From an uncultured Dehalococcoidaceae bacterium (lineage in GTDB: Bacteria; Chloroflexota; Dehalococcoidia; Dehalococcoidales; RBG-16-60-22): a stretch of DNA of 34,142 nt. Location of the stretch: NCBI GenBank assembly GCA_964514525.1, contig CAZEUJ010000002.1:1-34142 (forward strand), in the 5' to 3' direction. Below are positions 3,878 through 34,142 of this stretch, one piece after another. Made by a program: the position numbers and the translations under genes. The notes below the pieces were generated by a model that worked only from the letters and a program-made list of their open reading frames with translations, did no database searches and had not been told where the DNA came from. Within the stretch, counting starts at the first letter, position 1. Every line of letters begins with the position of its first letter.

Positions 3878-5050
3878 CTAAAGCAGCGAGGGAATGTCCT
3901 TTATCGTGATATCAATCCCTCGCTGCGTGCTTACCAGGCCTTCCTGGCGCTTCTTCAGTTCGGCGATGAGATTGATCGCTTTGGTGAAATAGCCCCTTAC
4001 CTTTTCCACGTCGCTCATTTCGGAGAGTATGACGGTGACATCCAGATTGCCTTTCTCCCTGGGGTAATCGCCGCTCCTGATGATCGCTTCCGGGGCTATA
4101 TTTTTTATGTAGGTACCCAGCTCTTTAATCAGGTCGACGTTGATTTCATCGGCCGGAGCGGACACGAGGTACAGGGCCCTCTTGGAGTCCAGCGGATTGC
4201 ATTTGATGGATAGCCCGCTGATGGCCTCATCGAGCGCGCGGGTGCCCTTTTGCGTTTCCGTGGCTTTGTCCCGGAAGTTGCGCGTCCGCATGAAGGTCTT
4301 AAAAATCGAGGTCTGTGACCGTCCGTAGCCCAGGGTCGTCCAGCCCACCAGTGTCTGGATGATGTCGCCGGCATCGAGTATCTTGGCGCCGATGAACCGC
4401 GACTTTTTTTCTTCGCCGGCGCAGAGCAGGTTGAAAAACGGTTGTACGATGGTGGTATTTATCTTGGCCAGATTGTGCGTGAGTGACGAGTCTTTCATCA
4501 CGTATCTCTGGTTATCGACGAGGAATATGGCGTCCGCCACCAGGTAGCTGGATTTGAGGCAGGTAGCCACGTTGTAAACGGTCCTGTCCTCGGTCAATAC
4601 CTCGTGCTCGAAAGGCAGGACTATCAGGTTATAGACCGGCCGGTCGACGTAGCGTTCCTTGATTTGCTGCGTCATTACCGGTATTGCCCCGGAGCCTGTG
4701 CCGCCGCCGGCGCTGGCGATAAGTAGAAAGGCGTCCGTTTCTGCGAAGTTTTCGGTGTTTCTTATCGTGTCGATGACCATGTCGGCGTCTTCGTGGGCTA
4801 TCTCGGCGCCGAGCTCGTTGATTTTCCCCACGCCGTGGCCGCCGGTCTTTTTCTTGCCGATGACGATACGCTGGCTGAAATCGGGCTTGATGGTGTGCAG
4901 GCCGCTCAGGTCGGCGAGGTCGGTATTGACCGCATAGGCGCCGGGGACGATATTGAGTCCGCGCAGGCCGCGGGCCCTTTTATTCAGGCGGGCGAACTCA
5001 TCGGCGATTCTGCCGCCGCATTGCCCGAAGCCGACAACTACTAGCTTCAT
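3878..5050 (-). CDS. Tubulin/FtsZ-superfamily GTPase, CetZ/tubulin-like paralog B (full length, 390 aa)
   Basis: N-terminal MKLVVVGFGQCGGRIADEF (T1 loop GQCGG, as in tubulin GQCGN). Also GGHGVGKINELGAEIA, ASAGGGTGSGAI (tubulin-type GGGTGSG rather than FtsZ GGGTGTG), LVDNQRYV, LLCAGEE and a C-terminal GDYP motif. From memory these resemble archaeal CetZ. GAGGGTG RBS. Confidence 0.88.
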   Translation of the reverse strand: MKLVVVGFGQCGGRIADEFARLNKRARGLRGLNIVPGAYAVNTDLADLSGLHTIKPDFSQRIVIGKKKTGGHGVGKINELGAEIAHEDADMVIDTIRNTENFAETDAFLLIASAGGGTGSGAIPVMTQQIKERYVDRPVYNLIVLPFEHEVLTEDRTVYNVATCLKSSYLVADAIFLVDNQRYVMKDSSLTHNLAKINTTIVQPFFNLLCAGEEKKSRFIGAKILDAGDIIQTLVGWTTLGYGRSQTSIFKTFMRTRNFRDKATETQKGTRALDEAISGLSIKCNPLDSKRALYLVSAPADEINVDLIKELGTYIKNIAPEAIIRSGDYPREKGNLDVTVILSEMSDVEKVRGYFTKAINLIAELKKRQEGLVSTQRGIDITIKDIPSLL

Positions 5051-20601: not shown

Positions 20602-21369
20602 TTAGTCCAGTACGGACCCGCCGGAAACATGCAGGATCGCGCCGGTTATATAACTGGACATTTCGGACGCGAAGAAGACCGTGGCATTAGCGATATCTGT
20701 CTGGGTAGCGCCCCTGCCCATTGGAATTGTCTTGGCGAGCATATTTACCATTGCCTGTTTGTCCGGACCGGGAATGAAATTGGTTGGGGCGGGGCCGGGG
20801 GCGACGCAGTTACAGCGTATACCGTTCTTGGCTTCGTTAAAGGCTAGCTGTTTGGTAAAAGTATCCACGCCGGCCTTGGAAATGGCATAAGCGTTACCCG
20901 TGCCATGGCTGTACATGCGCGTGCTCCCCGAACCTATATTGACGATGACGCCGGTCTTCTTTTCCCTCATATAGGGGAGTACGGCCTGGCATGTGAGCAT
21001 GACACCATGGAGGTTGAGGTGGATATCTTTATCCCAGTCTTCCGGCTTGGCTTTATCGTAAGGTACGCGACTTGCCACGCCGCCGGCAACGTTACAAAGG
21101 ATGTCTATCTTCTTATATTCATCGATAACTTTTTTTATCAGCGCGGCAACATCGGTGGGGTTGGTCACGTCCGCTTTCACGGCTATTGACTTTTTCCCCA
21201 GTTTCTTTACTTCTTCTGCCGTCAGTTTGGCATCGTCGAGATTGATATCCGTGACCGCGACGACGTCGCAACCCTCCCTTGCCAGGAGAAGCGCTATCTG
21301 CTTGCCGAATCCTATCTGGCTGCCGGCCCCGGTGACCAGTGCTACCTTGCCTTTGAAACCTAAGTCCAT
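20602..21369 (-). CDS. SDR-family NAD(P)-dependent oxidoreductase (paralog 2)
   Basis: The first 25 or so residues are nearly identical to paralog 1 (MDLGFKGKVALVTGAGSQIGFGK). YAISKAG catalytic motif. AGGAGG RBS. Confidence 0.9.
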   Translation of the reverse strand: MDLGFKGKVALVTGAGSQIGFGKQIALLLAREGCDVVAVTDINLDDAKLTAEEVKKLGKKSIAVKADVTNPTDVAALIKKVIDEYKKIDILCNVAGGVASRVPYDKAKPEDWDKDIHLNLHGVMLTCQAVLPYMREKKTGVIVNIGSGSTRMYSHGTGNAYAISKAGVDTFTKQLAFNEAKNGIRCNCVAPGPAPTNFIPGPDKQAMVNMLAKTIPMGRGATQTDIANATVFFASEMSSYITGAILHVSGGSVLD

Positions 21370-21488
21370 TATTACCTCCTGTACTTTCTATGATATTTTT
21401 GCAGGTACCATTATATAACATATTAACCCTGCTGGTGAAATCTGCCGATTTTCCTTTTTTCCTTATTCTCTTCGTCATGAAAAGAAGG

Positions 21489-21519
21489 TAAAAAAAGAGG
21501 GGGGTGCAACCCCCCTCTT
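21489..21519 (-). terminator. Intrinsic terminator of the ABC transporter operon
   Basis: Minus strand reads AAGAGGGGGG-TTGCA-CCCCCCTCTT followed by TTTTTAC, 28 nt downstream of the stop at 21547. The stem sequence belongs to the same AGAGGGG/CCCCTCT family as the interspersed repeats. Confidence 0.8.
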
Positions 21520-21546
21520 AACTCCCGTTATAATTTATCGTGTTAA

Positions 21547-22251
21547 CTAAAGCCCCATGTAGGCTTTCCTGACATGCTCGTCCTGCAGGCACATGGCGCA
21601 GGTGCCTTCGAGTACCACCCGCCCGTTTTCCAGCACGTAGGCGCGGTCGGCGATCTCCAGCGTCTGTCGGACATTCTGCTCGACAAGCACGATGGTAATT
21701 CCCCGTTCGCGGAGCGACTTGATTTTCTCGAAGACCTCTTGTACCAGTAGCGGTGCCAGGCCATTAGATGGTTCGTCGATAATACACAGTTTCGGCTTTG
21801 CCATCAAGCCGCGTCCCATCGCCACCATCTGCTGCTCGCCGCCGCTCAGTGTCCTGGCCAACTGTCCCGCCCTCTCTTTTAACCTGGGGAAAAGTTGAAA
21901 GATCTCTTCGATAGTCTCGTGTCTGGCTTGCCAGGCCTGTTTGCCATAGGCGCCCATCTCCAGGTTTTCCCGCACGGACATGTCCGTGAAAAGCTTTCTG
22001 CCTTCGGGTATGTGGGAAATACCGAGTTCAACAATAGCGTGGGGTGCCATATTATCAATTCTTTTCCCGAGGAAGGTAATGGTGCCTGAAGTAGGGTGCA
22101 GCACCCCGGATATCGTGTTCAACAGGGTGGTTTTTCCCGCGCCGTTGGCGCCAACCAGGGCGACGATTTCCTTTTCGTCGATTTTAAAGCTGAAATCCCA
22201 CAACACCTGGATTTGTCCGTAAAAAACATTGAGGTTACTTACTTCAAGCAT
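21547..22251 (-). CDS. ABC transporter ATP-binding protein, LivF-like
   Basis: Walker A GANGAGKTT, signature LSGGEQQ, Walker B LCIIDEPS. I prefer the ATG at 22251 (MLEVSNLNVFYG), which overlaps the upstream stop as ATGCTTGA. The track start is 22278. Confidence 0.92.
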   Translation of the reverse strand: MLEVSNLNVFYGQIQVLWDFSFKIDEKEIVALVGANGAGKTTLLNTISGVLHPTSGTITFLGKRIDNMAPHAIVELGISHIPEGRKLFTDMSVRENLEMGAYGKQAWQARHETIEEIFQLFPRLKERAGQLARTLSGGEQQMVAMGRGLMAKPKLCIIDEPSNGLAPLLVQEVFEKIKSLRERGITIVLVEQNVRQTLEIADRAYVLENGRVVLEGTCAMCLQDEHVRKAYMGL

Positions 22252-22975
22252 TGGTCTCTTCTCCCAGATAGACTTCAACTACGACCTTGCTGTTAGCGAT
22301 TTCAAGGGGCGTTCCTTCAGCGATTTTTTTGCCGTAATTAAGTACGATGATTCGGTCGCATACGTTCATAATAGCTTTCATCACGTGCTCTATCATAACG
22401 ATGGTAATGCCCTTTTCCCGTATCTTTTTTACCAGTTCCATAGCCTCGGTAATTTCCGTCTGGTTGAGGCCTGCCATTAATTCGTCAAGCAGGAGAAGCA
22501 CCGGTTTGGTAGCCAGCGCCCTGGCAACCTCGAGCCTTTTTTGGTTTGCCAGCGTCAGGTCTCGTGCCGGTACGCCGCTGACTTTGGTCAGCCCCACGAA
22601 TTCCAGGAACTCCCCGGCGTTTCGGGTCGCCTCGGCCGATGAGATGTTCTTCCCGTAACCGAAAAGAGCGCCGATGCGCACATTCTCCATCACAGGCAAG
22701 TTGGCGAATATCTTGACGTTCTGGAAAGTCCTCCCGATGCCCATCCGGCAGATTTTATAAGGGCTCATGCCGGTGATGTTCTTTCCTTTGAATTTTATGA
22801 TGCCCGGCTTGGGTACCAGCGATGCGGATATCAGATTGAACAATGTCGTTTTCCCCGCGCCGTTAGGACCGATCAATCCGAAGATTTCTCCCTCGTCGAC
22901 GTAGAAATCGACATCCGATACCGCGGCTAACCCTCCGAAATACTTGGTTACCCCTTCACCTTCAAGTATTCGCAT
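22244..22975 (-). CDS. ABC transporter ATP-binding protein, LivG-like
   Basis: Walker A GPNGAGKTT, Walker B LLLLDE. The variant signature region (QKRLEVARAL) and the EVYLG ending are typical of LivG-type proteins. Confidence 0.92.
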   Translation of the reverse strand: MRILEGEGVTKYFGGLAAVSDVDFYVDEGEIFGLIGPNGAGKTTLFNLISASLVPKPGIIKFKGKNITGMSPYKICRMGIGRTFQNVKIFANLPVMENVRIGALFGYGKNISSAEATRNAGEFLEFVGLTKVSGVPARDLTLANQKRLEVARALATKPVLLLLDELMAGLNQTEITEAMELVKKIREKGITIVMIEHVMKAIMNVCDRIIVLNYGKKIAEGTPLEIANSKVVVEVYLGEETNA

Positions 22976-23912
22976 GTCGCCCTCTCGGCCTTCGTCGCCA
23001 TAAATTTTGTATCAGTTGTACTAACCCGCCGGGCAGGTATAATATGGTACCCACCAATACTATACCGAAAAGGAGCATATATAATTCAGGTATTTTGGTT
23101 GTTAATTTTTCTTGCAGATAAGCGAAGAGAGCCGCACCTATTATCGGACCGAAAAGTTGTCCTGTACCGCCGAAGATAGCCATTAATACCGGTAAAAAGG
23201 AGTAATTCGCATTAAACGCGATAGATGGGTCGATATATGTCCATCGTGTCGCCATGATGGTTCCCGCGGCTCCCATGAAAAAAGCGCTGATACCAAAGGT
23301 GACAATCTTAACCATGGTTACATTAACGCCCATATGAGCCGCCGCATCCTCGTTCTCTCCGATGCTTTGCAGGGCCAGGCCGTATTTGGAACGTCGGATG
23401 AAGTACGCGGTAAACATTAGCGCGATCAGGATAATTAATATCACGTAATAAACAGTGGTGTTACTTTCCAATAAAACGATTCTGCCACGTGTCTTCGTCA
23501 CATTAAACTCATAGAACAGCAGGAGATTCTGTACGAGCAGGAGGAGTCCGAAAGTGAAGACGGTAAAATATATACCTTTGAGCCTTAGAGTCAGTGCGCC
23601 GACGAGAAAGGCGACTATGAAACTGATCAGACCGCCTGTAATGACAACGGCAGGCAGAGGCCATTTGTTCCCTAGCAAGGCCATAGAATATATGCCGACC
23701 CCGAAAAAAGCTGCCGTCGCCAGTGAAATATAGCCGGTAGGCCCGGAAAAAAGTACCCAGCTTACCGTGAGGATGATGTACATGAAGATGGAGGTTATCA
23801 ATACAGGAGTGTAACCTTTGACATAGAGGGGTATAGTAAACAATATAGCTAAGATTACTAAAACTAAACCCAATAAAAATGGTTTTCTTGAGATAACTTT
23901 TTCTATGTTCAT
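22962..23912 (-). CDS. Branched-chain amino acid-type ABC permease, LivM-like
   Basis: Polytopic hydrophobic protein of 316 aa with many predicted TM helices. Position and length fit LivM. Overlaps the livG-like gene by 14 nt. Confidence 0.88.
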   Translation of the reverse strand: MNIEKVISRKPFLLGLVLVILAILFTIPLYVKGYTPVLITSIFMYIILTVSWVLFSGPTGYISLATAAFFGVGIYSMALLGNKWPLPAVVITGGLISFIVAFLVGALTLRLKGIYFTVFTFGLLLLVQNLLLFYEFNVTKTRGRIVLLESNTTVYYVILIILIALMFTAYFIRRSKYGLALQSIGENEDAAAHMGVNVTMVKIVTFGISAFFMGAAGTIMATRWTYIDPSIAFNANYSFLPVLMAIFGGTGQLFGPIIGAALFAYLQEKLTTKIPELYMLLFGIVLVGTILYLPGGLVQLIQNLWRRRPRGRHANT

Positions 23913-23916
23913 CTCT

Positions 23917-24795
23917 CTATTTCCCTAAAATACCCGATGGCCTGACCAGGAGCAGGACTATGAAGATGAGATAATAAGCTGGCATTGTCAAGCCCGGCTC
24001 AAAATAGGTGACAATATTACCAATGATACCCAGTAAAAACCCCCCGATATAACTACCGGGGATACTGCCCATCCCGCCTAAGACAACAACGATGATGGCA
24101 ACGACGGTATAACCTAGGCCCATAGTTGCATGAATAGAAAAACACATGCTGATTAGCAAGCCGGCAAAAGCCGCCATTAAAGCCCCGAGGCCAAAACATA
24201 TGGCGAGCACCTGGTTGATGTTTACCCCCATTAGTCCAGCCGTCGCCGGGTCTTGGGCCGCGGCCCGGATGGCTTTTCCCAGACGGGTGCGGGCTAAAAA
24301 GAGGTAGAAGACTAAACCTATCACTACAGCAACACAAAGAGCTACTAGACTATTGGCGGCAAATATCGCTCCCCCGAGACTTACCGGGGTAGCTAAATAG
24401 GAGTACCCCTTGATGTTACCCCCCCATATTAACAAAGCCACATTTTGAAAGATGAACATGAGGCCGAAAGTGGCTAACAAGGAACTGGCTTCGTAGGCGC
24501 CTGGTGATGGTGACGAGGTTCTAAGGCGCTTAAATAAAGTCTGGTGAAGTAGATAACCAATTATGAATACAACTGGACCGACGATGGCAAGAGAAACCAG
24601 CGGGTTTATGCCAGCCATGGTGTACAGCGTCCAGGTGAGGAAAGCGCTGATCATGATGAATTCGCCATGCGCAATGTTCAGCACCCGGGCAACGCCATAC
24701 TGCAGGCTGAATCCCATGGCAATCAGGGCATAAAGTCCGCCCAGCAGTAAGCCACCAATTACAACATCCAGTATAGTCACAATGCTTTGAGGCAT
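23917..24795 (-). CDS. Branched-chain amino acid-type ABC permease, LivH-like
   Basis: 292-aa polytopic membrane protein. The N-terminal region GLLLGGLYALIAMGFSLQYGVARVLNIAHGEF is characteristic of LivH. Confidence 0.9.
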   Translation of the reverse strand: MPQSIVTILDVVIGGLLLGGLYALIAMGFSLQYGVARVLNIAHGEFIMISAFLTWTLYTMAGINPLVSLAIVGPVVFIIGYLLHQTLFKRLRTSSPSPGAYEASSLLATFGLMFIFQNVALLIWGGNIKGYSYLATPVSLGGAIFAANSLVALCVAVVIGLVFYLFLARTRLGKAIRAAAQDPATAGLMGVNINQVLAICFGLGALMAAFAGLLISMCFSIHATMGLGYTVVAIIVVVLGGMGSIPGSYIGGFLLGIIGNIVTYFEPGLTMPAYYLIFIVLLLVRPSGILGK

Positions 24796-24827
24796 AACGA
24801 TAGCTACCTGCCTTGATAATCATAGTT

Positions 24828-24913
24828 GCAGGCTGTCTATAAGGTGCAGGAAGAGTCTCGGGAGAAAAAATCACCTTTAAAGATTTTATTTTCACACCCT
24901 ATAGACAGCCTGC
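24828..24913 (-). promoter_or_regulatory. Long intercistronic stem-loop between the binding-protein and permease genes
   Basis: Perfect 14-bp inverted repeat GCAGGCTGTCTATA (24828-24841) with TATAGACAGCCTGC (24900-24913), extended by 4 bp after one mismatch. Loop of about 48 nt. No U-tract on the coding (minus) strand. Confidence 0.6.
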
Positions 24914-24954
24914 TTTTTATTTTTGTATCGGTACTATATTTTTGTATATGTATT

Positions 24955-26349
24955 TTATGGTGTCGTTGGCCACGGTGGCTTGGGGTAAATAGGATCTGCG
25001 GTAGCTTTCTCCGTGGGACCAATGACTTCCCATATAGCTATTCCAGCCGTCGCATCCCATTGCCACTGACCAATCTCGCCGGGATGACACTCGACTGCCA
25101 GCAGATAACCGCCACCACCGATTTGGTCATACCAGGTCGGTCCCAGATCTGTCTGGAACGTACTGGTACCCATTACATCCCTTATGACTTCCTGGTCAAG
25201 GGTTCCAGCCTCCTCGATAGCCTGCTGGAAGTGCTGCAGCGCGCCCCAATAGAACAGGGTGCCCCAGTAGTCGATAACTTCATCGCTCCCCCATTTAGCG
25301 ATGAATTTATCGTAGAATGCTTGTGCGGCGGGAGAGCTCTTCGGACTCCAGGCGCCTTCGCCGATAACACCATCAAGCGCAAAACCACCGTTGCCAACAA
25401 ACTGGTCTCTTAAAGTCGGTGAATAGCCGCCAGGGCCGAGTACCATGGCTTTGGGGTTGTAGTCGAGCGCGATTGCCCGTGTGACCATAAAGAAGGTCGT
25501 CGGGGGATAGACAAAACAGCAAACGACGTCGGCTCCGGTATCTCTGGCCTCCTTCAATAGCAGGTCAACATCCGTAGTGTAAGGAATGGAACTCTTATTC
25601 ATCAATATATCAATTCCTACCCTATCGAAGTCTATACCCGCCTGGCCGGAGTATTCTACGCCGTGAAGGTCAGCAATGTAAATTATTGCCGCCGTCTCCA
25701 CACCCCATGACGCAAGCATGTCAGCCAGAACCGGTATCTGGTTGCGGTTGGAATAATTCAAGACGCCAAAAAAGTAGGGCATACCAGGAAGCGCCGCCTG
25801 CTCGAGGGTCGTACAACCACCCTCGGCTCCAAGTAGTATATAATTATATTTATTGGTTACAGCGCCGGCAGCAAAAAGAAACGCAGTGCTGGCAGGCGGG
25901 AAGACGAAGTCAACCTGGTCCTCTACTATCAACTTTTCCAGTAGTGTCGTCATCAAGTTCATATCGCTGGTATCATCATAGACAAGCATCTCTACTGGTA
26001 GTTTCTTGCCGTACTCCGCCACGTATATACCGCCATCGGCGTTGACCTCATCAACCCACATTTTATAGACCGGCCCGAATGCGGTTGCCTCAAAGAAAGA
26101 TAAGGGGCCGGAAAGAGGTCTGGCCGCGCCGATGACGATTTTATCCTTGGGTGGCTTTGTGGGTGTTGCGGAAGGGGTAGGCGTGGCGGTCTTGGTCGTC
26201 GTGGCTGTGGCCGTCGCCGTCGTCGTCGCCGTCGCCGTCGCCGTTACCGTCGTCGTGGGCGCTTCCTCTTTACACCCGGGAATAACGGTGATTAAAAATA
26301 CGAGACAAATAATCAGTGGCAAAGCGTATTTAATCGATTTTCTCCACAT
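24955..26349 (-). CDS. ABC transporter substrate-binding lipoprotein (type I periplasmic-binding fold, Liv-type) with a Thr/Ala-rich tether
   Basis: Signal peptide MWRKSIKYALPLIICLVFLITVIPGC with lipobox, then the linker TTTVTATATATTTATATATTTKTATPTPSATPTKPP, then a domain of about 390 aa typical of Leu/Ile/Val-binding-type receptors. The ORF-track start is 26391. I prefer the ATG at 26349 (AGGAGG 12 nt upstream). Confidence 0.8.
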   Translation of the reverse strand: MWRKSIKYALPLIICLVFLITVIPGCKEEAPTTTVTATATATTTATATATTTKTATPTPSATPTKPPKDKIVIGAARPLSGPLSFFEATAFGPVYKMWVDEVNADGGIYVAEYGKKLPVEMLVYDDTSDMNLMTTLLEKLIVEDQVDFVFPPASTAFLFAAGAVTNKYNYILLGAEGGCTTLEQAALPGMPYFFGVLNYSNRNQIPVLADMLASWGVETAAIIYIADLHGVEYSGQAGIDFDRVGIDILMNKSSIPYTTDVDLLLKEARDTGADVVCCFVYPPTTFFMVTRAIALDYNPKAMVLGPGGYSPTLRDQFVGNGGFALDGVIGEGAWSPKSSPAAQAFYDKFIAKWGSDEVIDYWGTLFYWGALQHFQQAIEEAGTLDQEVIRDVMGTSTFQTDLGPTWYDQIGGGGYLLAVECHPGEIGQWQWDATAGIAIWEVIGPTEKATADPIYPKPPWPTTP

Positions 26350-26485
26350 ATTTTGTGTATACCTCCTGTTTTTCCGGAATACATCTTGCATCCATGTTGC
26401 TCATGTCTTTTTCTTACATATCACCTCCCTCTATATAAATATCAATTAAATTATTAACTTGCACGTTATTAATGACGGAACATCT

Positions 26486-26526
26486 CATATAAATTCTCTA
26501 TGACTTTATAGAGAATTTTTTATATG
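26486..26526. promoter_or_regulatory. Inverted repeat in the leader of the ABC operon (candidate operator or RNA hairpin)
   Basis: AAATTCTCTA (26491-26500), 8-nt spacer, TAGAGAATTT (26509-18). Flanking CATAT/ATATG extend the repeat with a 3-nt bulge. Confidence 0.45.
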
Positions 26527-26613
26527 AATTTACCGCCTGCTATTTAATTAGAATTTATTATCACTTTGATAAACTGGATTTTATTTTTTATCTTTTGCAC
26601 GGATTTAGACAAC

Positions 26614-26641
26614 TTTATAATACTATTGCGAGGGTTGTCAA
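26614..26641 (-). promoter_or_regulatory. Sigma70-like promoter for the ABC transporter operon
   Basis: Minus strand reads TTGACA (26641-26636), 16-nt spacer, TATAAA (26619-26614). This implies an AT-rich 5' leader of about 215-260 nt. Confidence 0.5.
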
Positions 26642-26827
26642 GTATTTTACCCATTAATAGCTGAATTTTTCAATTCTTGGCGACAATGTAAGTACTACTA
26701 GTAAGAAATTACTATCAGAAAAATAAGGGTCTTGATTTACCCAAAGACAATCGCCGGCGGTATATTGTGCTTAAAAAGGATGGATAAGGGTGAGGCGTTT
26801 TTGGTTGAAAGAACCGGCTATAAGGAC

Positions 26828-27139
26828 TTAAACTGCGACGAGTTTCTTAGAACGGCTTTTACGTCTTTTCCAGCCGAGGGTCTCCAGGAGATCGCCGATG
26901 GCCTTGTCCTGTTGCGTTTCACTGCGCAGCGGCATGTCGGGGTCGAAACTGTATCTGATGCGTCGACCCTCCCTCTTTTTCGTCACATAACCATCTGCTT
27001 CGAGGTCGTTAATGATGTTGCGCGTGGCCTTCTCCGTGATACCTATCGTCGCGGAAATTTCTCGGGCGGTGACGCGCGGCTTCTGGGCGATAAGGCAGAG
27101 TACCATGGCATGGTTGGTCAGGAATTTCCATCCCGGCAT
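26828..27139 (-). CDS. Winged helix-turn-helix transcriptional regulator (ArsR/MarR-like)
   Basis: VTAREISATIGITEKATRNIINDLEADGYVTKKREGRRIRY has an HTH-plus-wing pattern. The GGAGGT RBS directly abuts the track start (27145), so the ATG at 27139 (MPGWKF) fits better. Confidence 0.75.
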   Translation of the reverse strand: MPGWKFLTNHAMVLCLIAQKPRVTAREISATIGITEKATRNIINDLEADGYVTKKREGRRIRYSFDPDMPLRSETQQDKAIGDLLETLGWKRRKSRSKKLVAV

Positions 27140-27209
27140 ACTCATACCTCCTTACCAGAATTTCTTTTAAAAATTTTTTTAAAACTTTTCTTACAATCAC
27201 TAAAAACTA

Positions 27210-27237
27210 TTGACAATTTTCACTGGAGTTGTATAAT
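27210..27237 (+). promoter_or_regulatory. Near-consensus sigma70 promoter of the aminomutase operon
   Basis: TTGACA (27210-27215), 16-nt spacer, TGTATAAT (27230-27237, extended -10). Confidence 0.7.
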
Positions 27238-27243
27238 TAAAGT

Positions 27244-27261
27244 TAGGAATTAAAATTCCTA
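27244..27261. promoter_or_regulatory. Palindromic candidate operator between two opposing -10 boxes
   Basis: TAGGAATT-AA-AATTCCTA is a perfect 8+8 palindrome. A third AGGAAT half-site lies at 27273-27278. On the minus strand, an extended -10 TGTTATAAT sits at 27273-27265. Confidence 0.5.
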
Positions 27262-27361
27262 TATATTATAACAGGAATGTCAAGTTAACACAAGTAATTA
27301 GCGAAAAAAACGTTACAAATAAAACAAATTTATAGAAGAAGGAGCGTTAAAAAAAAGAAGA

Positions 27362-28711
27362 GTGAAAACGTCATCGGTGGCCAGTAAAAACCACACCACC
27401 CCCGGTACTACCAGAATGACAATGGAAACCTTATCCAGAAACGAAGCTGAAGAACCTCCCAGTAAAACTCCAGTCCCTAAAAGTATCGATGACGAACCTC
27501 CCGGTAAAAGCGCTGCCGGAAGATTTGGACTGTTCGGGAACGTACCGGATAGTTCCTGGAATGATTGGAAGTGGCACTTCCGTAACCGCATCACTACCGT
27601 TGACCAGCTCAGCCAGCTGGTGCCGCTATCGATTGAGGAAAAAGCGCAAATCGAAATGGTTTGCCAGCGTTATCCTCTCGCCATCACCCCTTACTACCTG
27701 TCGCTCATTAACCCCGACGACCCCAATGACCCCGTAAGGAAACAGGCGATACCTTCTATTCTTGAGATTTCCATGAGCGATATCGGTATGGAAGACCCCC
27801 TGGCCGAAAAAGAGGACTCGGTTGTCCCCGGCCTCGTGCACCGCTATCCTGATAGGGTGTTGATGGTCCTCACGGATATCTGTCCCATGCTCTGCCGTCA
27901 CTGTACCCGCAAGCGCGAATGGCGGCACGGCGGCTGGGTGCGGCCTTTTAGCGAGATTGAAGCCATGCTGGACTATTTACGCCGGAACACTAAAGTAAGG
28001 GATGTCATTATCTCCGGCGGCGACCCCCTGACGCTTTCGACCGCTCACCTGGAGATCATTATATCTAAGATACGGGAAATCAAGCACATCGAAATCATAC
28101 GTATCGGCAGCCGGTTCCCCGTGGTGTTGCCGCAACGTATTGATGCCGAACTCTGTGACATGCTCTCGAAGCACGGCCCGATATGGTTTAACACCCACTT
28201 CAACCACCCCCGTGAGATCACCCCGGAGGCGGCCGCCGCCTGCGACCGCTTGCTACGCGCCGGCGTGCCGGTGAATAACCAGTCGGTATTGCTGCGGGGC
28301 ATCAACGATAGTGTTCAGACGCAGCTTAAACTCTGCCAGGGTTTACTCAAGGCTAAAGTGCGTCCGTATTACCTCTTCCAGTGTGATGAGGTTCAGGGTA
28401 CGGAACATCTCCGCACCCCGATAGAAGTGGGTATAAAAATTATTGAAGGTATGCGCGGGCATACCTCCGGCCTGGCCGTCCCCAACTTCGTCGTGGACCT
28501 GGTTAACGGCGGTGGCAAGGTGCCTTTACAGCCGAACTACGTGCTATCGATGACCAAAGACGAACTGCTGTTGAAGAACTACGAGGGTAAGGTCTTCCGT
28601 TATCGTAATCCGAATTCGTCAAGCCGCCGGGAAAACGTTGTCAAGAATCCCTCGGTTAGCGGCGTCGTGGATAAACTTCTGGCGGATGCCAATTTGCCGG
28701 TAAAGGTTTAA
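27362..28711 (+). CDS. KamA-family radical SAM aminomutase (lysine 2,3-aminomutase-like) with a low-complexity N-terminal extension of about 60 aa
   Basis: CPMLCRHCTRK (CxxxCxxC). W-rich KamA N-terminal box (WNDWKWHFRNRI). NNQSVLLRGIND, PYYLFQCD and GHTSGLAVPNFVVD motifs as I remember them from KamA/AblA. The start is uncertain: GTG at 27362 or ATG at 27416. Confidence 0.9.
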   Translation: MKTSSVASKNHTTPGTTRMTMETLSRNEAEEPPSKTPVPKSIDDEPPGKSAAGRFGLFGNVPDSSWNDWKWHFRNRITTVDQLSQLVPLSIEEKAQIEMVCQRYPLAITPYYLSLINPDDPNDPVRKQAIPSILEISMSDIGMEDPLAEKEDSVVPGLVHRYPDRVLMVLTDICPMLCRHCTRKREWRHGGWVRPFSEIEAMLDYLRRNTKVRDVIISGGDPLTLSTAHLEIIISKIREIKHIEIIRIGSRFPVVLPQRIDAELCDMLSKHGPIWFNTHFNHPREITPEAAAACDRLLRAGVPVNNQSVLLRGINDSVQTQLKLCQGLLKAKVRPYYLFQCDEVQGTEHLRTPIEVGIKIIEGMRGHTSGLAVPNFVVDLVNGGGKVPLQPNYVLSMTKDELLLKNYEGKVFRYRNPNSSSRRENVVKNPSVSGVVDKLLADANLPVKV

Positions 28712-28721
28712 GGAGAGGTAG

Positions 28722-29723
28722 ATGCGGATCGGGTTATCGTTTGACCTTAAAGCGGCGGTAGAGGGTCGCCTCACCGCCGAAGACGCGCTGGAAGAATACG
28801 ATTCCCCGGAAACGGTGGAGATGATATCGGCGGCCCTCAAGTCGAAAGGGCATACCGTCGTCAGGCTGGGGGGCGGCCCGCATTTTCTTGATAATATCCG
28901 TCGCGAGAGCGTTGATATCGTCTTTAACATCGCCGAAGGCCGCGGTACCTACCGCAGTCGGGAGGCTCAGGTGCCGGCCGTCCTGGAGATGCTGGATATT
29001 CCCTATACCGGCTCTGACCCTCTGACGCTGGCGGTGTGTCTTGATAAACCGCTGACCAAGAAGCTGGTAGCGGCGGAGGGTATCAGCACCCCCGGGTGGC
29101 TGGTAATTGCCGGCGGGGAAGATTTACGCCGGGCGCCCTGGGAAAAGCTGACCTTCCCGGTCATTATCAAGCCGGCCTCAGAAGGTTCGAGCAAGGGCAT
29201 CCGCCTGACTTCTCTCGCGACCAATATCCCACAGGCGGAAGCGGAAATCCGCCGGATTCTGGATGGTTACCGCCAGCCGGTCATGGTGGAAGAGTTCATC
29301 GACGGCGAAGAGGTAACCGTGGGCATCGTCGGGAACTCGCCGCCCAAAATTGTGGGTATGATGCGCGTCGTGCCGAAAAAACCGGTCGAGCATTTCGTCT
29401 ATTCGCTGGAGGTCAAGCGCGACTACGTTAATCTGGTCGACTATGAAACTCCCGCCCGGCTGTCTATAAATACCCTCGAAAAGATGGAGCATTTCAGTCT
29501 TAAAGCCTTTAAGACGCTCGGCTGCCGCGACTTTTCCCGCGTTGACTTCCGTGTCAGCCGCGATGGTACGCCCTACTTTATTGAAATCAATCCCCTCCCC
29601 GGACTCGGGAGCTACAGCGACCTCGTCATCATGGCGCTGATGCTGGGCTGGACTTACGAAGCGTTAATCGGTACCGTGCTTGATGCCGCTATAGAGAGGT
29701 ACCCGCAATGTGTGCGCGTATAG
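28722..29723 (+). CDS. ATP-grasp ligase, D-alanine--D-alanine ligase-like (1)
   Basis: AAGGAGAGG RBS 10 nt after the upstream stop. Ddl-like layout: GxxGEDG-type loop replaced by IAEGRGTYRSREAQVPAVLEMLDIPYTGS, DKPLTKKL, VIIKPASEGSSKGI, MVEEFIDGEEVTV, FIEINPLPG. Confidence 0.85.
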   Translation: MRIGLSFDLKAAVEGRLTAEDALEEYDSPETVEMISAALKSKGHTVVRLGGGPHFLDNIRRESVDIVFNIAEGRGTYRSREAQVPAVLEMLDIPYTGSDPLTLAVCLDKPLTKKLVAAEGISTPGWLVIAGGEDLRRAPWEKLTFPVIIKPASEGSSKGIRLTSLATNIPQAEAEIRRILDGYRQPVMVEEFIDGEEVTVGIVGNSPPKIVGMMRVVPKKPVEHFVYSLEVKRDYVNLVDYETPARLSINTLEKMEHFSLKAFKTLGCRDFSRVDFRVSRDGTPYFIEINPLPGLGSYSDLVIMALMLGWTYEALIGTVLDAAIERYPQCVRV

Positions 29724-30787
29724 CCGTCGTCTATAACGAGCCGAACCCGTCGCGCTATGACCGTACCCATGAACAGAAAGCGGTTGTCGGCGTTCTAGAA
29801 GCCGTAGAAGCGGTCCGCACATCTATACTTGAGCTGGACTATGAAGTGGTCCTTTTACCGCTGGTACCGCCTTTTGAGACGGCCAGGCGGAAGCTGGCAT
29901 CTCTGGAAGTCGCCCTGGTCTTCAATCTTTTCGAAGGTTTTTGCGGCGAGCCGGAAACGGAAGCCCTGGTGCCGGAAGCCTTGACAGAACTGGGGATACC
30001 ATTTACTGGTTGCCAGGCTGCGGTGCTCAGGCTTGGCCTGGATAAAGCCAAGGTCAAGGTGTTGCTCCAGGCCGCTGGCATTCCCACGGCGGACTTTCAA
30101 TTGCTTAACCCTGAGACGTTACATATGTTTCGCCTCGATTATCCCTGCATTGTCAAACCACGTGCCGATGATGCCAGTAACGGTATCACCGCGGATAGCG
30201 TGGTCCAGGATTTCCCTTCGCTGGCAAGGCAAGTGAACGTCATCGCAGAGTCTTACGGCGGTAACGCTCTGGTGGAACGGTTTATTGGCGGATGTGAGTT
30301 CAACGCCACGGTTATGGGCAACTCCGAATTTATCGTATTACCTGTGTCTGAAATCGTTTATTCATTATCACCGGGGTTGCCTCGCATCCTAAATTTTGAA
30401 GCCAAATGGGAGGAGGACAGCGTCTATTTTCAGGGCACCAAGGTTGTTTGTCCGGCGGAGATTGAACCTAGGGAGCGTGAATGCATTGCCGAGACAGCCT
30501 TGGCAGCTTACAGATTACTTGGTTGTAGCGGATACGCCCGGGTGGATATGCGCATGGACGAGGCAGGGGAACTTAATGTAATGGAGGTCAATCCCAATCC
30601 GGATATCTCGCCGGGTACCGGCGCGGCCCGGCAGGCTCTGGCGGCCGGTATGAATTATACACAGTTCATTGATAAGATTGTTAAACTGGCTCTGGAGAAG
30701 AAAAATTATGACCGTCGGCATCCGCCCCATGGTCGCCGGGGACAAACCGGCGCTGATGCAAATACTGCGGAATACGCCCGAATTTAA
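29708..30787 (+). CDS. ATP-grasp ligase, D-alanine--D-alanine ligase-like (2)
   Basis: ATG overlaps the upstream stop by 16 nt. ELGIPFTGC, DKAKVKVLL, CIVKPRADDASNGI, LVERFIGGCEFNATV and VMEVNPNPD match the ATP-grasp core. The last 26 or so residues overlap the next gene and look low-complexity. Confidence 0.85.
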   Translation: MCARIAVVYNEPNPSRYDRTHEQKAVVGVLEAVEAVRTSILELDYEVVLLPLVPPFETARRKLASLEVALVFNLFEGFCGEPETEALVPEALTELGIPFTGCQAAVLRLGLDKAKVKVLLQAAGIPTADFQLLNPETLHMFRLDYPCIVKPRADDASNGITADSVVQDFPSLARQVNVIAESYGGNALVERFIGGCEFNATVMGNSEFIVLPVSEIVYSLSPGLPRILNFEAKWEEDSVYFQGTKVVCPAEIEPRERECIAETALAAYRLLGCSGYARVDMRMDEAGELNVMEVNPNPDISPGTGAARQALAAGMNYTQFIDKIVKLALEKKNYDRRHPPHGRRGQTGADANTAEYARI

Positions 30788-31184
30788 GCCTTTTGAGGTG
30801 GCGGTGGCGGAGGAGGTCATCGACGCCTATCTTAACGACCCCGAAGGCACCGGTTACTTTACCCTTGTCGCTGAGGACGGTGGTGAAATTGCGGGTTATA
30901 TCTGCTATGGCGAAACGCCGTGTACCGTGGGAACCTGGGATATATATTGGATAGCGGTAGACCGCTCAAAGCGCAGGCGGGGTATCGGTAAAATCCTTTC
31001 GGATACGGCGGAAGCGGCGATAAAGAAAGCCGGGGGCAGGTTGGCTATTATCGAAACGTCATCGACGCCGCTTTACGAAAATACCAGGAACTTTTATCTC
31101 CGCCGCGGCTATGAGACCGTCGCCCGCATCCCTGATTTTTATACCCCCGGCGACGATAAACTTATCCTGCGGAAACGGCTATAA
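30708..31184 (+). CDS. GNAT-family N-acetyltransferase (158 aa)
   Basis: GGAGAAG RBS 7 nt before the ATG at 30708 (MTVGIRPMVAGD). Motif A: VDRSKRRRGIGKIL. The track start at 30669 has no RBS. Confidence 0.85.
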   Translation: MTVGIRPMVAGDKPALMQILRNTPEFKPFEVAVAEEVIDAYLNDPEGTGYFTLVAEDGGEIAGYICYGETPCTVGTWDIYWIAVDRSKRRRGIGKILSDTAEAAIKKAGGRLAIIETSSTPLYENTRNFYLRRGYETVARIPDFYTPGDDKLILRKRL

Positions 31185-31226
31185 TATTATTAGCCGGAAT
31201 TCCATTCTGGGAGGCGATGCTTTAAC

Positions 31227-31823
31227 GTGTCCTGGCAAAATTTCGTCTTGACCTTTGTGCCGCTGTTCATCGTTATCGATGCCTTCGGCAACCTGCCTTT
31301 TGTCATCTCTATGGGCGAGGGCAGGGAGAAACCGGAACGCCGCCGGATGGTCCACCTGGCTATCATTACCGCCACTATCGTCGGGCTGGTCTTCCTCTTC
31401 TTCGGGCAGTTTATCCTGGATGTGATGGATATTGACGTGGGTTCTTTCGCCATCGCTGGCGGGATTATTCTGCTGGTGCTTTCTATCAAATATATGACCA
31501 CCGGCCATATGGTCGATATGGTTAGTAAAGAAATGCTCGCGGTGGTCCCCATCGGCACGCCGCTGACGGTCGGCCCCGCTACCATAACCACCCTGATTCT
31601 CCTGGCGCTGCAATACAATATCTATATGGTGCTCATTTCCTTCGCTCTGAATATGTTGATTACCTGGGTTATTTTCCTCCTGAGCCACTGGATTGCCGGT
31701 TTCATGGGGGAGGGGGGCATCCGGGCGACTTCCCGCGTCTTCAGCCTGCTGCTCGCCGCCATCGCCGTGAGTATGATTATTAATGGATTAAATCGTATCG
31801 GCATTATTAATACGATAGGCTGA
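31227..31823 (+). CDS. MarC-family (UPF0056) integral membrane protein
   Basis: N-terminal FVPLFIVIDAFGNLPFV and PIGTPLTVGPATITT motifs, about 6 hydrophobic segments, 198 aa. Confidence 0.82.
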   Translation: MSWQNFVLTFVPLFIVIDAFGNLPFVISMGEGREKPERRRMVHLAIITATIVGLVFLFFGQFILDVMDIDVGSFAIAGGIILLVLSIKYMTTGHMVDMVSKEMLAVVPIGTPLTVGPATITTLILLALQYNIYMVLISFALNMLITWVIFLLSHWIAGFMGEGGIRATSRVFSLLLAAIAVSMIINGLNRIGIINTIG

Positions 31824-31889
31824 ATGACCTGAATGGTCTCGTTTCTAGTATTGAGCTGACAGGATTTTTAACAAAATTTTTAGCCTTAT

Positions 31890-33128
31890 ATGATTTCCAT
31901 CATTACCCTGGCTGCTGTTTTTCTGCTTATCGCCGTCCGCCGGGTCGGCAATATCAAACTCCAGATTTGGCAGATAATGCTGCTGGGGGCCCTGGTCGTC
32001 CTGGTTTCCAGGGAAATATCTCCGCTGGATGCCCTTAAGGCGATTAACGCCGACGTTATGCTTTTCTTATTCTGCGTTTTCACCATCGGCCAGGCGATGG
32101 AAGACAGCGGCTATCTCGGCCACCTTGCCTATCGTTTTTTCGGGAAAGCGCATACGCTGAACGCCCTGGTTCTCCTGATACTTTTCGGCATGGGTCTGCT
32201 CTCGGCGCTGCTTTTAAACGATACGCTGGCCATCATCGGCACGCCCGTTGTCCTGGCCCTGGCGAGCAAGGCTGATACTCAGCCCAAAATCCTCCTGCTT
32301 TCCCTGGCTTTTGCCGTGACCATCGGCAGCGTGATGAGCCCCATCGGCAATCCTCAAAACCTGTTGATAGCCATCCACGGCAACGTGACAAATCCCTTCG
32401 TTACTTTCTTTAAATATCTCATGTTGCCGACCCTGGTGAACCTCGGTATAGCTTATGGTCTATTAAGGCTGTTCTACCGCGAGCATTTTCACGGTCGCCC
32501 CCTGGTGCATCCCATCGAGCCGATAAAGGACGCCAGGCTGGCGTTATTAGCTAGGATTTCTCTGATAATAATGGTGGTTTTAATACTGGTAAAGATATTG
32601 CTGGTGTTCATTGTACCGGATATTGATTTCAAGCTGACCTATATCGCCCTGGCTGCGGCGTTGCCGATTTTTCTTTTTATTCCCCGTCGGCCGGGTATAC
32701 TAAAGCGAATCGACTGGTTTACCCTGGTCTTCTTTGCGGCCATGTTCGTCCTGATGCAGAGCGTCTGGGACTCCGGCTATTTCCAGAAAGCTATTGCCTC
32801 GACGGATATCGATTTGAATTCGACGGGCATGATTCTGGGTGTGAGTATTCTCCTGAGTCAGGTTCTTTCCAATGTCCCTTTGGTGGCCCTTTACCTGCCG
32901 GTGCTGATCCATGCCGGTGCTTCAACTGCGGGCATGATGGCGCTGGCGGCGGGGAGCACTATCGCCGGTAACCTGACCATCCTTGGCGCCGCCAGCAATA
33001 TTATCATCATCCAAAACGCGGAAAAGAGAGGCGGCGCCACCCTGACCTTTCTGGAATTTGTTAAAATTGGCGTGCCGCTGACGATTTTGAATGTGGCTGT
33101 CTACTGGCTGTTCCTGATGATATTCTGA
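31890..33128 (+). CDS. ArsB/NhaD-superfamily (SLC13/citrate-transporter-like) anion permease
   Basis: 412-aa polytopic protein. SPIGNPQNLLI and TILGAASNIII hairpin-like motifs are typical of this permease superfamily. Confidence 0.72.
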   Translation: MISIITLAAVFLLIAVRRVGNIKLQIWQIMLLGALVVLVSREISPLDALKAINADVMLFLFCVFTIGQAMEDSGYLGHLAYRFFGKAHTLNALVLLILFGMGLLSALLLNDTLAIIGTPVVLALASKADTQPKILLLSLAFAVTIGSVMSPIGNPQNLLIAIHGNVTNPFVTFFKYLMLPTLVNLGIAYGLLRLFYREHFHGRPLVHPIEPIKDARLALLARISLIIMVVLILVKILLVFIVPDIDFKLTYIALAAALPIFLFIPRRPGILKRIDWFTLVFFAAMFVLMQSVWDSGYFQKAIASTDIDLNSTGMILGVSILLSQVLSNVPLVALYLPVLIHAGASTAGMMALAAGSTIAGNLTILGAASNIIIIQNAEKRGGATLTFLEFVKIGVPLTILNVAVYWLFLMIF

Positions 33129-33137
33129 GGCAGCTTT

Positions 33138-33449
33138 TCAGACGATATCCGCCCGGGTCTTCAACCAGATAATCCTGCCGGTGACGCTTCGGGCTGCCTG
33201 TCCCCGGGTAGTGCAGTTAAGCAGGTCTTTCGCTATCTTCTCGTCACCGATGACGTCCCTGACCCAGTTGCTGAAGTCGGTTTTGGTCTCATTTGAATGA
33301 TATCGGAAAGTTTCTTCGGCCATCTGCTCCAGGGCTGTTTTCAGTTCCTCCAGGTTCTTCAGAAATCTGCCGTCATGGCACCAGAATCGCTTTTCTTTGG
33401 GTATGTCTCCCAATCTTGCTTTCGCCGCTGACTTCGATACACTCACCAT
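33138..33449 (-). CDS. Hypothetical protein, possibly DUF5752-like
   Basis: 103 aa. The pattern FWCHDGRFLKNLEELKTALEQMAEETFRYH...DFSNWVRDVIGD resembles a small helical domain I recall as DUF5752. GGAGGTGGTG RBS. Confidence 0.5.
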   Translation of the reverse strand: MVSVSKSAAKARLGDIPKEKRFWCHDGRFLKNLEELKTALEQMAEETFRYHSNETKTDFSNWVRDVIGDEKIAKDLLNCTTRGQAARSVTGRIIWLKTRADIV

Positions 33450-33709
33450 ATCACCACCTCCTGAGTCAGTTTGCGGGGTTAGTATTCGTTTTGCACTATT
33501 GTGCCATTTTTTACGGTGTTAAACAAGTACTTTTTACCCCTTTTTTGACGTAAAATTGTCAGGCTGGCAAGATTTTAAGGAAATTAAACAGGGCGGCTTT
33601 ATACTCCCCGAACTTATCACGGCGGATGAATATTTGTGAAGAATTTCAGAAAAATGCTAGTATATAGCCGGGAGTAAATAGCCCTCTGGCCTGTCAGGAG
33701 AGATCAAGT

Positions 33710-34142
33710 ATGGCTAATACGAAATTCGAAAAACTTCTGGAGCCGGGCCGTATCGGGTCGGTCAAGACCCGCAACCGTATCATTAAGACCGGCGCCGGTA
33801 CGTTTATGTGGCACGAGGACGAAACCCGTATGAACGGCGCTGTCCTGGCTTTTTACGAATCGCTGGCTAGGGGCGGCGTCGGGCTGTTGATTGTCGAATC
33901 GCCCACGATTGACTATCCTTTGGGTGCGCGCTGGCAGCAGCGTTATCGGATTGACGATGACAAGTATATCAAGGGTCTCAGCGAACTTCCTCAGATAATC
34001 CACAAGTACGGTTGTCCCACCTTCATGCAAATGAACCATGACGGCCCCTGGCAGAAGGCGTTACTGGGAATAACGCCCTTCTTTGACGGTCAGCCCATCG
34101 CCGCTTCTCCCGTGGTGATGAAAGCGGAAAACGATTTTCATA
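33710..34142 (+). CDS. NADH:flavin oxidoreductase, Old Yellow Enzyme family (N-terminal 144 codons; continues beyond the window)
   Basis: Missing from the ORF track because no stop lies in the window. AGGAGAG RBS 7 nt before the ATG at 33710. My translation reads MANTKFEKLLEPGRIGSVKTRNRIIKTGAGT...YESLARGGVGLLIVESP...MQMNHDGPW, the typical OYE/2,4-dienoyl-CoA-reductase N-terminal TIM-barrel pattern. Confidence 0.8.
   Translation, partial: MANTKFEKLLEPGRIGSVKTRNRIIKTGAGTFMWHEDETRMNGAVLAFYESLARGGVGLLIVESPTIDYPLGARWQQRYRIDDDKYIKGLSELPQIIHKYGCPTFMQMNHDGPWQKALLGITPFFDGQPIAASPVVMKAENDFH

Follow-up and report, generated by a model that had tools for sequence, protein, structure and literature searches.

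A conserved aminomutase, ATP-grasp ligase and acetyltransferase module in Dehalococcoidales and its probable role in beta-lysine metabolism

Positions 1–34,142 of contig CAZEUJ010000002.1 from an uncultured Dehalococcoidaceae bacterium (this 34,142-nt stretch is hereafter called the window) carry an operon in which a radical S-adenosylmethionine (SAM) aminomutase, KamA, is followed by two Ddl-like ATP-grasp ligases, AG1 and AG2, and by an acetyltransferase of the GNAT family. The conserved unit consists of these four enzymes and a winged helix-turn-helix (wHTH) regulator, and the six-gene layout seen in the window is one variant of it. We consider it rather likely that the module encodes an uncharacterised, repressor-controlled pathway to a cytoplasmic small molecule, namely a beta-lysine-containing amide or oligopeptide that is N-acetylated or passes through an acetylated state. 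To our knowledge, the roles of beta-lysine in primary metabolism are few: the osmolyte N-acetyl-beta-lysine, the modification of EF-P and lysine fermentation. The module combines beta-lysine metabolism with ATP-grasp peptide ligases, which probably points to a further, undescribed beta-lysine metabolite.

Conservation of the four enzymes and their regulator

Related loci were collected with an AG2 profile run against one genome for each GTDB species. At least 548 relatives were confirmed, and the best 80 loci were analysed; genes were counted by tblastn, and the denominators are the loci long enough to show each gene. Almost all of these 80 loci belong to metagenome-assembled genomes (MAGs) of Dehalococcoidales or Dehalococcoidia from peat, fen, aquifer sediment and the Black Sea. 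Alongside AG2 (29708–30787 in the window, forward strand), KamA (27362–28711, forward) was found in 62/62 loci, AG1 (28722–29723, forward) in 73/73 and the GNAT (30708–31184, forward) in 74/74, and the wHTH gene (26828–27145, reverse) lies divergently upstream of KamA in 46/56. Within one order, the module is present in at least 548 species-level genomes, and its genes diverge in parallel.

The other two genes of the window operon are optional. The MarC/NAAT-family membrane protein (31227–31823, forward strand, 198 a.a.; Pfam MarC 1.4e-40; NCBIfam NAAT-family model TIGR00427, 123 versus a cutoff of 99 bits) follows the GNAT in 17 of 54 loci, and the CitMHS/ion-transporter-superfamily permease (31890–33128, forward, 412 a.a.; Pfam CitMHS 5.8e-49, with a weak DASS match) is present in 8 of 54. 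The preliminary description of this DNA, drawn from the letters alone, had taken the six-gene arrangement as the unit and the two membrane proteins as pathway members; by these counts the six genes are not a conserved unit, and the membrane proteins are accessory only. Other add-ons are missing from the window. A fusion of about 580 a.a., encoded immediately after the GNAT or MarC gene in 22 of 54 loci (for example, L039:3644-5386), joins a GNAT-like N-terminal domain to a C-terminal histone-deacetylase domain whose nearest structures are acetylpolyamine amidohydrolases (APAH; 1.9e-72), and a second GNAT with an M20 hydrolase of the ArgE/DapE deacylase family occurs in 5 of 54.

A wider search with an AG2 profile hidden Markov model against 1.84 billion representatives brought up 2097 proteins (E <= 1e-30). 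Inspection of the top 150 showed many chains of 500–520 and 650–790 a.a., which are AG2::GNAT fusions and double Ddl-like proteins according to Pfam. At the loci of such relatives, the four activities recur in altered arrangements: KamA–AG1–AG2::GNAT in L089, KamA–AG1::AG2–GNAT in a myxococcotal locus (L090) and AG2–GNAT–KamA–AG1 in an unclassified MAG (L091/L092). The last order is also that of Nitrospinota (L093/L094), where a pyruvoyl arginine decarboxylase gene abuts AG2 with zero gap (L093:5459-7032). In a Syntrophales MAG (L033), an AG1–AG2–GNAT series 61–68% identical to the window proteins is followed by a KamA that is only 39–40% identical to the window KamA; judged from its sequence, this KamA is of a different lineage that was recruited next to the ligases. 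Its clade (L033:8563-9714; L083–L086) comprises 381–384-a.a. proteins that are 82–88% identical across phyla and are usually encoded by stand-alone genes. The MAGs with this KamA type are labelled Syntrophales, Planctomycetota, Aminicenantes, Eisenbacteria and Pseudomonadota; conservation of this degree across phyla is unusual.

Taken together, the permuted gene orders, the fusions and the non-orthologous recruitment argue strongly that the four activities serve one pathway. A lack of co-conservation had been named in the preliminary description as a finding that would count decisively against a shared pathway, and the neighbourhood survey removes that objection, since the genes stay together in many genomes and phyla and are in part fused.

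Active sites of the aminomutase, the ligases and the acetyltransferase

KamA (449 a.a.; LAM_C and Radical_SAM domains in Pfam and NCBIfam) matched the lysine 2,3-aminomutase (LAM) of C. subterminale (PDB 2A5H) at 3.4e-141, with 55.6% identity over 365 residues. In LAM, R134 binds the substrate carboxylate, D293 and D330 bind the epsilon-ammonium group of lysine, and K337 binds pyridoxal phosphate (PLP); the Asp293/Asp330 pair is replaced in glutamate 2,3-aminomutase. Inspection of the substrate-binding residues against the Clostridium structure revealed that the equivalents R183 (R134), D342 (D293), D379 (D330) and K386 (K337), together with the CxxxCxxC cysteines C174, C178 and C181, are invariant in 63 homologs, which upholds the assignment of a lysine-type aminomutase. 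The same equivalents are also kept in the cluster KamAs of other phyla. Because the lysine-, PLP- and cluster-binding residues are all kept and the identity to the Clostridium enzyme is 56%, beta-lysine is the likely product of KamA, and we regard this conclusion as well supported.

Nevertheless, KamA differs from the described subfamilies. It passes the KamA-family subfamily model TIGR00238 (334.9 versus a cutoff of 199.2 bits) and stays under the equivalog cutoffs for AblA (TIGR03820; 489.3 versus 525.4 bits, the best equivalog model), glutamate 2,3-aminomutase (450 versus 650), arginine 2,3-aminomutase (410 versus 600) and EpmB (239 versus 369.3). The clostridial Zn site is missing, as the C-terminal tail of KamA is without cysteine and the Zn ligand C268 of LAM is a serine in the window KamA and S, T or N in the homologs. 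On these sequence grounds, KamA is placed in a separate lysine-type clade. In the C-terminal region (a.a. 418–449, nt 28612–28711), a VSGVVxxLLAD segment replaces the Zn-binding cysteines and is conserved in the Dehalococcoidales homologs; the window protein terminates before most homologs, which run on to …ADRVIVRS. At the other end, the public gene call (P0001, 444 a.a.) begins five codons further in than 27362, and the conservation of an N-terminal MKTxSVA in the homologs supports the GTG at 27362 as the start.

This start opens an N-terminal tail of 53 a.a. (27362–27520, forward strand), which is predicted to be disordered (AlphaFold2 pLDDT of about 26 for residues 1–51). A low-complexity extension of about 60 residues had been described here; the extension is real, but it is 53 a.a. 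long and, rather than being of plain low complexity, carries conserved EEPP[G/S]K motifs. The two copies in the window are EAEEPPSK (a.a. 28–35, nt 27443–27466) and DDEPPGK (a.a. 43–49, nt 27488–27508), with Pro-Pro pairs at P32 and P46, 14 residues apart. Among the cluster KamAs, 63 of 66 contain the near-invariant EEEPP[G/S] motif, with 121 copies in total, mostly two and sometimes three per protein, and the spacing is again 14 residues in 41 of 58 pairs. A loose version of the pattern matched once in the 233,310 a.a. of all other open reading frames (ORFs) at the same loci. Outside these clusters, the L089 KamA has two copies and the Nitrospinota KamA (L093) has one (FEEPPGSK), whereas the cluster KamAs of Myxococcota (L090) and Syntrophales (L033) have none and yet keep AG1, AG2 and the GNAT. 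Present in most and missing from these two, the motif thus belongs to the module and is not indispensable to it.

The tail might dock the ligases or the GNAT, act as a Glu-based carrier arm or be an EF-P-dependent stall site, PPG being among the strongest known EF-P-dependent stall motifs. That it is a working part of the pathway, either as a carrier or docking arm for the assembly of beta-lysine or as an EF-P-dependent translational gate, is in our estimation unlikely. As a carrier, it would allow the ligases and the GNAT to assemble the beta-lysine compound on or beside the tail, in an enzyme-tethered form of the LysW-type amino-group-carrier chemistry. As a gate, it would tie the synthesis of an EpmB-like, beta-lysine-forming enzyme to EF-P, through two PPG/PPS stall sites encoded in the first 50 codons. 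Either mechanism, if true, would be new for KamA enzymes and for Ddl-type ligases, and the tail may reveal how a radical-SAM enzyme is coupled to its downstream ligases or to translation control.

The two ligases, AG1 (333 a.a.; Dala_Dala_lig_C 1e-36) and AG2 (359 a.a.; 2.8e-31), are paralogs with 29% identity, and their best PDB matches are Ddl (7e-33) and VanA/Ddl (4e-27), respectively. Neither reaches any Ddl/Van cutoff (the best scores are 183.6 bits for AG1 and 146.7 bits for AG2, versus 243), and no Dala_Dala_lig_N domain was matched by either in Pfam. We aligned 70 AG1 and 70 AG2 sequences to E. coli DdlB, whose sequence was verified against 2DLN/1IOV. The DdlB residues K97, K144, E180, E187, K215, R255, D257, E270 and N272 are kept in 68–70 of the 70 AG1 and AG2 sequences and also across phyla, with K215 aligning in the smaller of the alignments. 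The earlier identification of two Ddl-like ATP-grasp ligases is therefore sound, as their catalytic residues are kept.

The substrate side of the two pockets has changed, at the D-Ala-binding positions Glu15, Ser150 and Tyr216 of DdlB and at His63 and Leu282. Glu15 of DdlB, a D-Ala1 ligand, is without an equivalent in AG1 and AG2, and H63 is a glutamate in every sequence. The remaining changes are E68R, Y216R and L282D in AG1, in which S150 is kept, and S150A/G, Y216W, G276D and L282G in AG2. These AG1- and AG2-specific signatures hold from Chloroflexota to Nitrospinota and Myxococcota. We read AG1 and AG2 as putatively active amide ligases that work through an acyl-phosphate and differ from each other in their substrate pairs; the acidic substitutions in both pockets make cationic substrates probable. 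With such defined and conserved pocket signatures, the two enzymes would be useful biocatalysts for beta-peptide bonds.

The GNAT (158 a.a.; Acetyltransf_1 4e-13) has its nearest structure in PDB 2R7H (7.7e-30), an uncharacterised entry named 'putative D-alanine N-acetyltransferase'; in NCBIfam it matched none of the AblB models and had only weak RimI-type matches. Its start lies in the +1 frame relative to AG2, and the 80-nt overlap with AG2 (30708–30787) is conserved in most related loci. The same DNA thus encodes the GNAT N-terminus and a conserved basic C-terminal tail of AG2 (…QTGADANTAxYARI; …RRHPPHGRRGQTGADANTAEYARI). Elsewhere, the two proteins are fused (L089, P0371 and P0415), or AG2 stops early without an overlap. 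The conservation of the AG2 tail may be a by-product of the overlap, since the tail lies exactly within it and is missing where the genes do not overlap. A programmed-frameshift fusion of AG2 to the GNAT was considered and rejected: it would need a +1 shift, and no canonical slippery site was seen.

A proposed beta-lysine pathway and its alternatives

In the pathway that we propose, KamA would first convert L-lysine to beta-lysine, a step that is close to shown by the conservation of the active site. By the chemistry of their family, AG1 and AG2 would then turn a carboxylate into an acyl-phosphate and make one amide bond apiece, which could yield a beta-lysine-containing di- or tripeptide-like amide or possibly a short oligomer. 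The GNAT may acetylate an amino group of beta-lysine or of an intermediate, as a final cap or as a transient protecting group. In some lineages, an APAH-type or ArgE-type deacylase would take off the acyl group or recycle the compound, and MarC and CitMHS-type membrane proteins might transport the product or a precursor. An acetylated beta-lysyl di-/tripeptide or oligomer, as put forward in the preliminary description, is still an inference. A small-molecule product is suggested by the GNAT-APAH fusions, the ArgE/DapE deacylases, the double ligase paired with a Peptidase_S58 gene (see below) and the arginine decarboxylase of Nitrospinota.

As for its physiological role, the product might plausibly be a compatible solute, a cationic metabolite rich in nitrogen or a compound resembling the polyamines. 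A classical neutral osmolyte seems to us slightly less likely than a compound that is cationic, polyamine-like or rich in nitrogen, because of the APAH-type add-on, the arginine decarboxylase neighbour in Nitrospinota and the acidic substitutions in the ligase pockets. In Dehalococcoidales, whose members are abundant in the subsurface and in peat and for the most part uncultured, the module occurs very often.

Several points weigh against this pathway. Which substrates AG1 and AG2 take and where the acetyl group is placed is guesswork, and the conserved EEEPP[G/S] tail has no role in the scheme. The co-expression of an acetyltransferase and a deacetylase, expected in 22 of 54 loci, is awkward unless the acetylation is transient. 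The source environments (peat, fen, aquifer and the Black Sea water column) are mostly not saline. In addition, one of the six ligase representatives with contigs looked up (L087) is without KamA: there, a more distant double Ddl-like ligase is followed by a Peptidase_S58 gene (L087:7001-10432), of what we take to be the DmpA/BapA beta-aminopeptidase family. Beta-lysine may thus not be the sole acyl or amine partner of the ligase family.

We compared the module with known systems, and it is a member of none of the AblAB, Ngg, PylB/PylC and carnosine synthase/carnosinase systems, which appear to be its nearest functional analogies. AblA and AblB make N-epsilon-acetyl-beta-lysine in methanogens and some bacteria, and like them the module pairs, in one operon, a KamA-family lysine 2,3-aminomutase containing the lysine-binding Asp pair with a GNAT. 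It differs in the two always-present ligases between the aminomutase and the GNAT, in a KamA that scores too low for the AblA model, is without the Zn site and bears the extra motif tail, and in a 158-a.a. GNAT without an AblB match. The earlier label 'AblAB-like' therefore fits the aminomutase (489 versus 525 bits, with AblA as the best model) but not the GNAT, which is nearest to 2R7H. With Ddl and VanA, the nearest structures, the ligases share the ATP-grasp fold, the C-terminal Ddl domain and all of the ATP, Mg2+ and transition-state residues, whereas the Dala_Dala_lig_N match is missing, Glu15 and Tyr216 are replaced and His63 is a glutamate in all of them.

In the pathway to N-acetylglutaminylglutamine amide (NAGGN), Ngg holds a GNAT and an ATP-grasp domain in one protein and makes N-acetylglutaminylglutamine. 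The AG2::GNAT fusions recall this cooperation of an acetyltransferase with an ATP-grasp enzyme, sometimes in one polypeptide, in making an N-acetylated small peptide solute, a likeness of pathway logic; here the two domains come in the opposite order, the module also has a second ligase and a radical-SAM enzyme that forms a beta-amino acid, and there is no AsnO-type amidotransferase. PylB and PylC likewise perform a radical-SAM rearrangement of lysine and then a joining to another amine by a Ddl-related ATP-grasp enzyme. However, PylB is not a KamA-type PLP aminomutase, PylD has no counterpart here, the module has two ligases and a GNAT, and no structure named PylC was among the PDB matches of AG1 and AG2 at E <= 1e-5. 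Carnosine synthase is an ATP-grasp enzyme that couples a beta-amino acid to an amine, and M20 hydrolases reverse the reaction; an M20 deacylase is also among the add-ons here. That system is eukaryotic and uses one ligase and beta-alanine, without an aminomutase or a GNAT.

Two further systems act on proteins or peptides. EpmB is a KamA homolog that supplies beta-lysine for attachment through an amide bond by EpmA, a LysRS paralog; besides the low EpmB score of the module KamA, activation would proceed here through an acyl-phosphate and not, as there, through an acyl-adenylate. Neither EpmA nor efp was found in the window or the 80 loci surveyed, and Pfam and NCBIfam scans of the window agree with the earlier statement that no EpmA/LysRS paralog is present. 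With regard to graspetides (microviridin), the module ligases are Ddl-type by their PDB matches, a difference drawn with no direct comparison to the MdnB/C family. None of the ORFs in the 80 loci is a conserved precursor gene, and the small ORFs upstream of KamA occur in two to seven loci each.

These comparisons bear on the alternatives to a small-molecule pathway. The system might instead modify or use a protein or peptide, either by an EF-P-like beta-lysylation without EpmA or with the KamA tail as a covalent scaffold, on whose Glu side chains the beta-lysine compound would grow in the manner of LysW with LysX. The kinship of EpmB with KamA speaks for this, as do the near confinement of the acidic motif to the cluster KamAs (121 copies versus one), within a disordered tail and in Nitrospinota as well, and the rarer deacylase add-on, since the ArgE/LysK family releases lysine from LysW. 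Two ATP-grasp ligases with a GNAT and a transporter also form the layout of the microviridin genes MdnB/C/D/E. We nevertheless judge protein modification unlikely. The myxococcotal and Syntrophales clusters keep AG1, AG2 and the GNAT beside KamAs without the motif, the Ddl-type ligases retain the framework of a small-molecule pocket, the EpmB and EpmA models are unmatched, and efp, epmA and a conserved precursor-peptide gene are missing from the window and the 80 loci. An inducible, repressor-controlled operon with transporters and an acetylpolyamine-type deacetylase suits a metabolite better. Another reading is a bioactive or toxic, polycationic beta-lysine oligopeptide resembling the beta-lysine chain of streptothricin, with N-acetylation to protect the producer and deacetylation to make the compound active during or after export. 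Streptothricin provides the precedent, as its beta-lysine oligomers are known and are inactivated by N-acetylation by a GNAT; the co-occurrence of acetyltransferase, deacetylase and exporter-like genes and the acidic ligase pockets, with their implied cationic substrates, would fit. But the module lies within a conserved chromosomal neighbourhood of housekeeping genes, and its parallel divergence over so many species-level genomes (at least 548) within one order fits core physiology better than a secondary metabolite. The transporters occur in a minority of loci, and no export signal on the APAH-type fusion was seen by eye, a check made without a formal test. We therefore hold such a product to be unlikely.

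A polymer has a slimmer chance still. The two ligases might alternate in building a cyanophycin-like reserve that is made of beta-lysine, by itself or together with another amino acid, resists proteases and is degraded by dedicated peptidases. Always paired and sometimes fused, they recall the two active sites of cyanophycin synthetase; the related double ligase sits beside a Peptidase_S58 gene, and an M20 hydrolase is added in 5 of 54 loci. Most loci, however, have no dedicated peptidase, no structure named cyanophycin synthetase or Mur ligase appeared among the PDB matches of AG1 and AG2 at E <= 1e-5, and an always-present, cap-type GNAT suits a defined small product better. It is very improbable, finally, that the two Ddl-like genes are unrelated passengers, such as cell-wall D-Ala-D-Ala ligases, next to an ordinary ablAB pair. 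The aminomutase has AblA as its best equivalog model, a GNAT is present, and ablAB is the routine annotation of such gene pairs in papers. However, AG1 and AG2 stand between KamA and the GNAT in frames that overlap or nearly abut, AG1 is present in 73/73 loci, and the ligases are fused to each other or to the GNAT elsewhere, data that already contradict the passenger reading; the ligases fail the Ddl/Van cutoffs and lack Dala_Dala_lig_N and the D-Ala-binding residues Glu15 and Tyr216, and the GNAT has no AblB match.

Full-text searches found no published description of the module, with the ATP-grasp amidoligase survey of Iyer et al. (2009), which may hold a prediction, outside their reach. Apart from irrelevant papers, the searches gave ablAB annotations only, in line with the earlier remark that the arrangement was not recognised as a characterised pathway.

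Operon layout, regulation and genomic setting

The ORF listing confirmed the seven genes of the preliminary description with their positions, gaps and overlaps, and its family labels agree with the Pfam and NCBIfam matches. KamA and AG1 are separated by 10 nt, AG1 and AG2 overlap by 16 nt, and AG2 and the GNAT overlap by 80 nt if the GNAT begins at the ATG at 30708, which has a GGAG 12 nt upstream. The spacings of GNAT to MarC and of MarC to the permease are 42 and 66 nt.

The regulator (105 a.a.; Pfam HTH_24 2.7e-08, MarR_2 2.8e-07) faces KamA across a region with a consensus sigma-70 promoter, TTGACA-16 nt-TATAAT (27210–27237, forward strand), the sole 12/12 match in 26400–34142. The pattern TTGAC[AT]-N16-18-TA[TAC]AAT was found in 35 of 36 wHTH-KamA intergenic regions of related loci. 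Just past the -10 box lies a candidate operator, the palindrome AGGAATTAAAATTCCT (27245–27260), followed by a third AGGAAT half-site (27273–27278); an AGGAAT-N4-ATTCCT palindrome is located at the same place in 14 of the 36 regions, those of closer relatives. The wHTH protein is thus probably a local repressor that would bind the AGGAAT palindrome to control the consensus promoter, which looks to be a strong one. An Rfam scan of the window gave no match, and so no riboswitch of a known family is present in it.

Elsewhere in the window, the genes are of the housekeeping type, including those for enolase, GAPDH, an NAD-dependent DNA ligase, peptidyl-tRNA hydrolase and ribulose-phosphate epimerase. 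The window is syntenic with a related 266-kb contig (L001): DNA ligase, Diphthami_syn_2, His_Phos_1, PDDEXK and Rpe are common to both, and the synteny also takes in two SDR genes, the wHTH gene and the operon. The housekeeping neighbours and this synteny indicate that the operon is chromosomal and that its position is conserved in the lineage. The nearest homologs of KamA and AG2 are 66–91% identical, and those with names are from Dehalococcoidales MAGs.

The Liv-type ABC transporter genes upstream (20602–26391) were considered as part of the module and rejected, as they occupy that position in just 5 of 83 loci, the window included. In the gene of their substrate-binding protein (24955–26391, reverse strand), a GTCGCC hexanucleotide is repeated in tandem about 10 times (26195–26256), encoding a Thr/Ala-rich linker (TTTVTATATATTTATATATTTK…) after the signal/anchor region. 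Convergent to the permease lies a 103-a.a. ORF (33138–33449, reverse) whose only matches, to DUF5752/DUF5789, are weak; 6 of 54 related loci have it no more than 6 kb from the module.

Far from the operon, a tubulin/FtsZ-superfamily protein (3878–5050, reverse) carries a domain of the CetZ type at its C-terminus (Pfam CetZ_C 4.6e-18) and scores far under the FtsZ equivalog cutoff; since CetZ is regarded as archaeal, such a protein in a Dehalococcoidales contig deserves attention. A 741-a.a. protein without a family match (946–3171, forward) consists almost entirely of Ala/Glu/Lys/Arg/Thr-rich helical repeats (…AREAAEAAxKAAQEAVxRAE…), and its region has a high G+C content (0.60–0.62) and a strong A-over-T skew.

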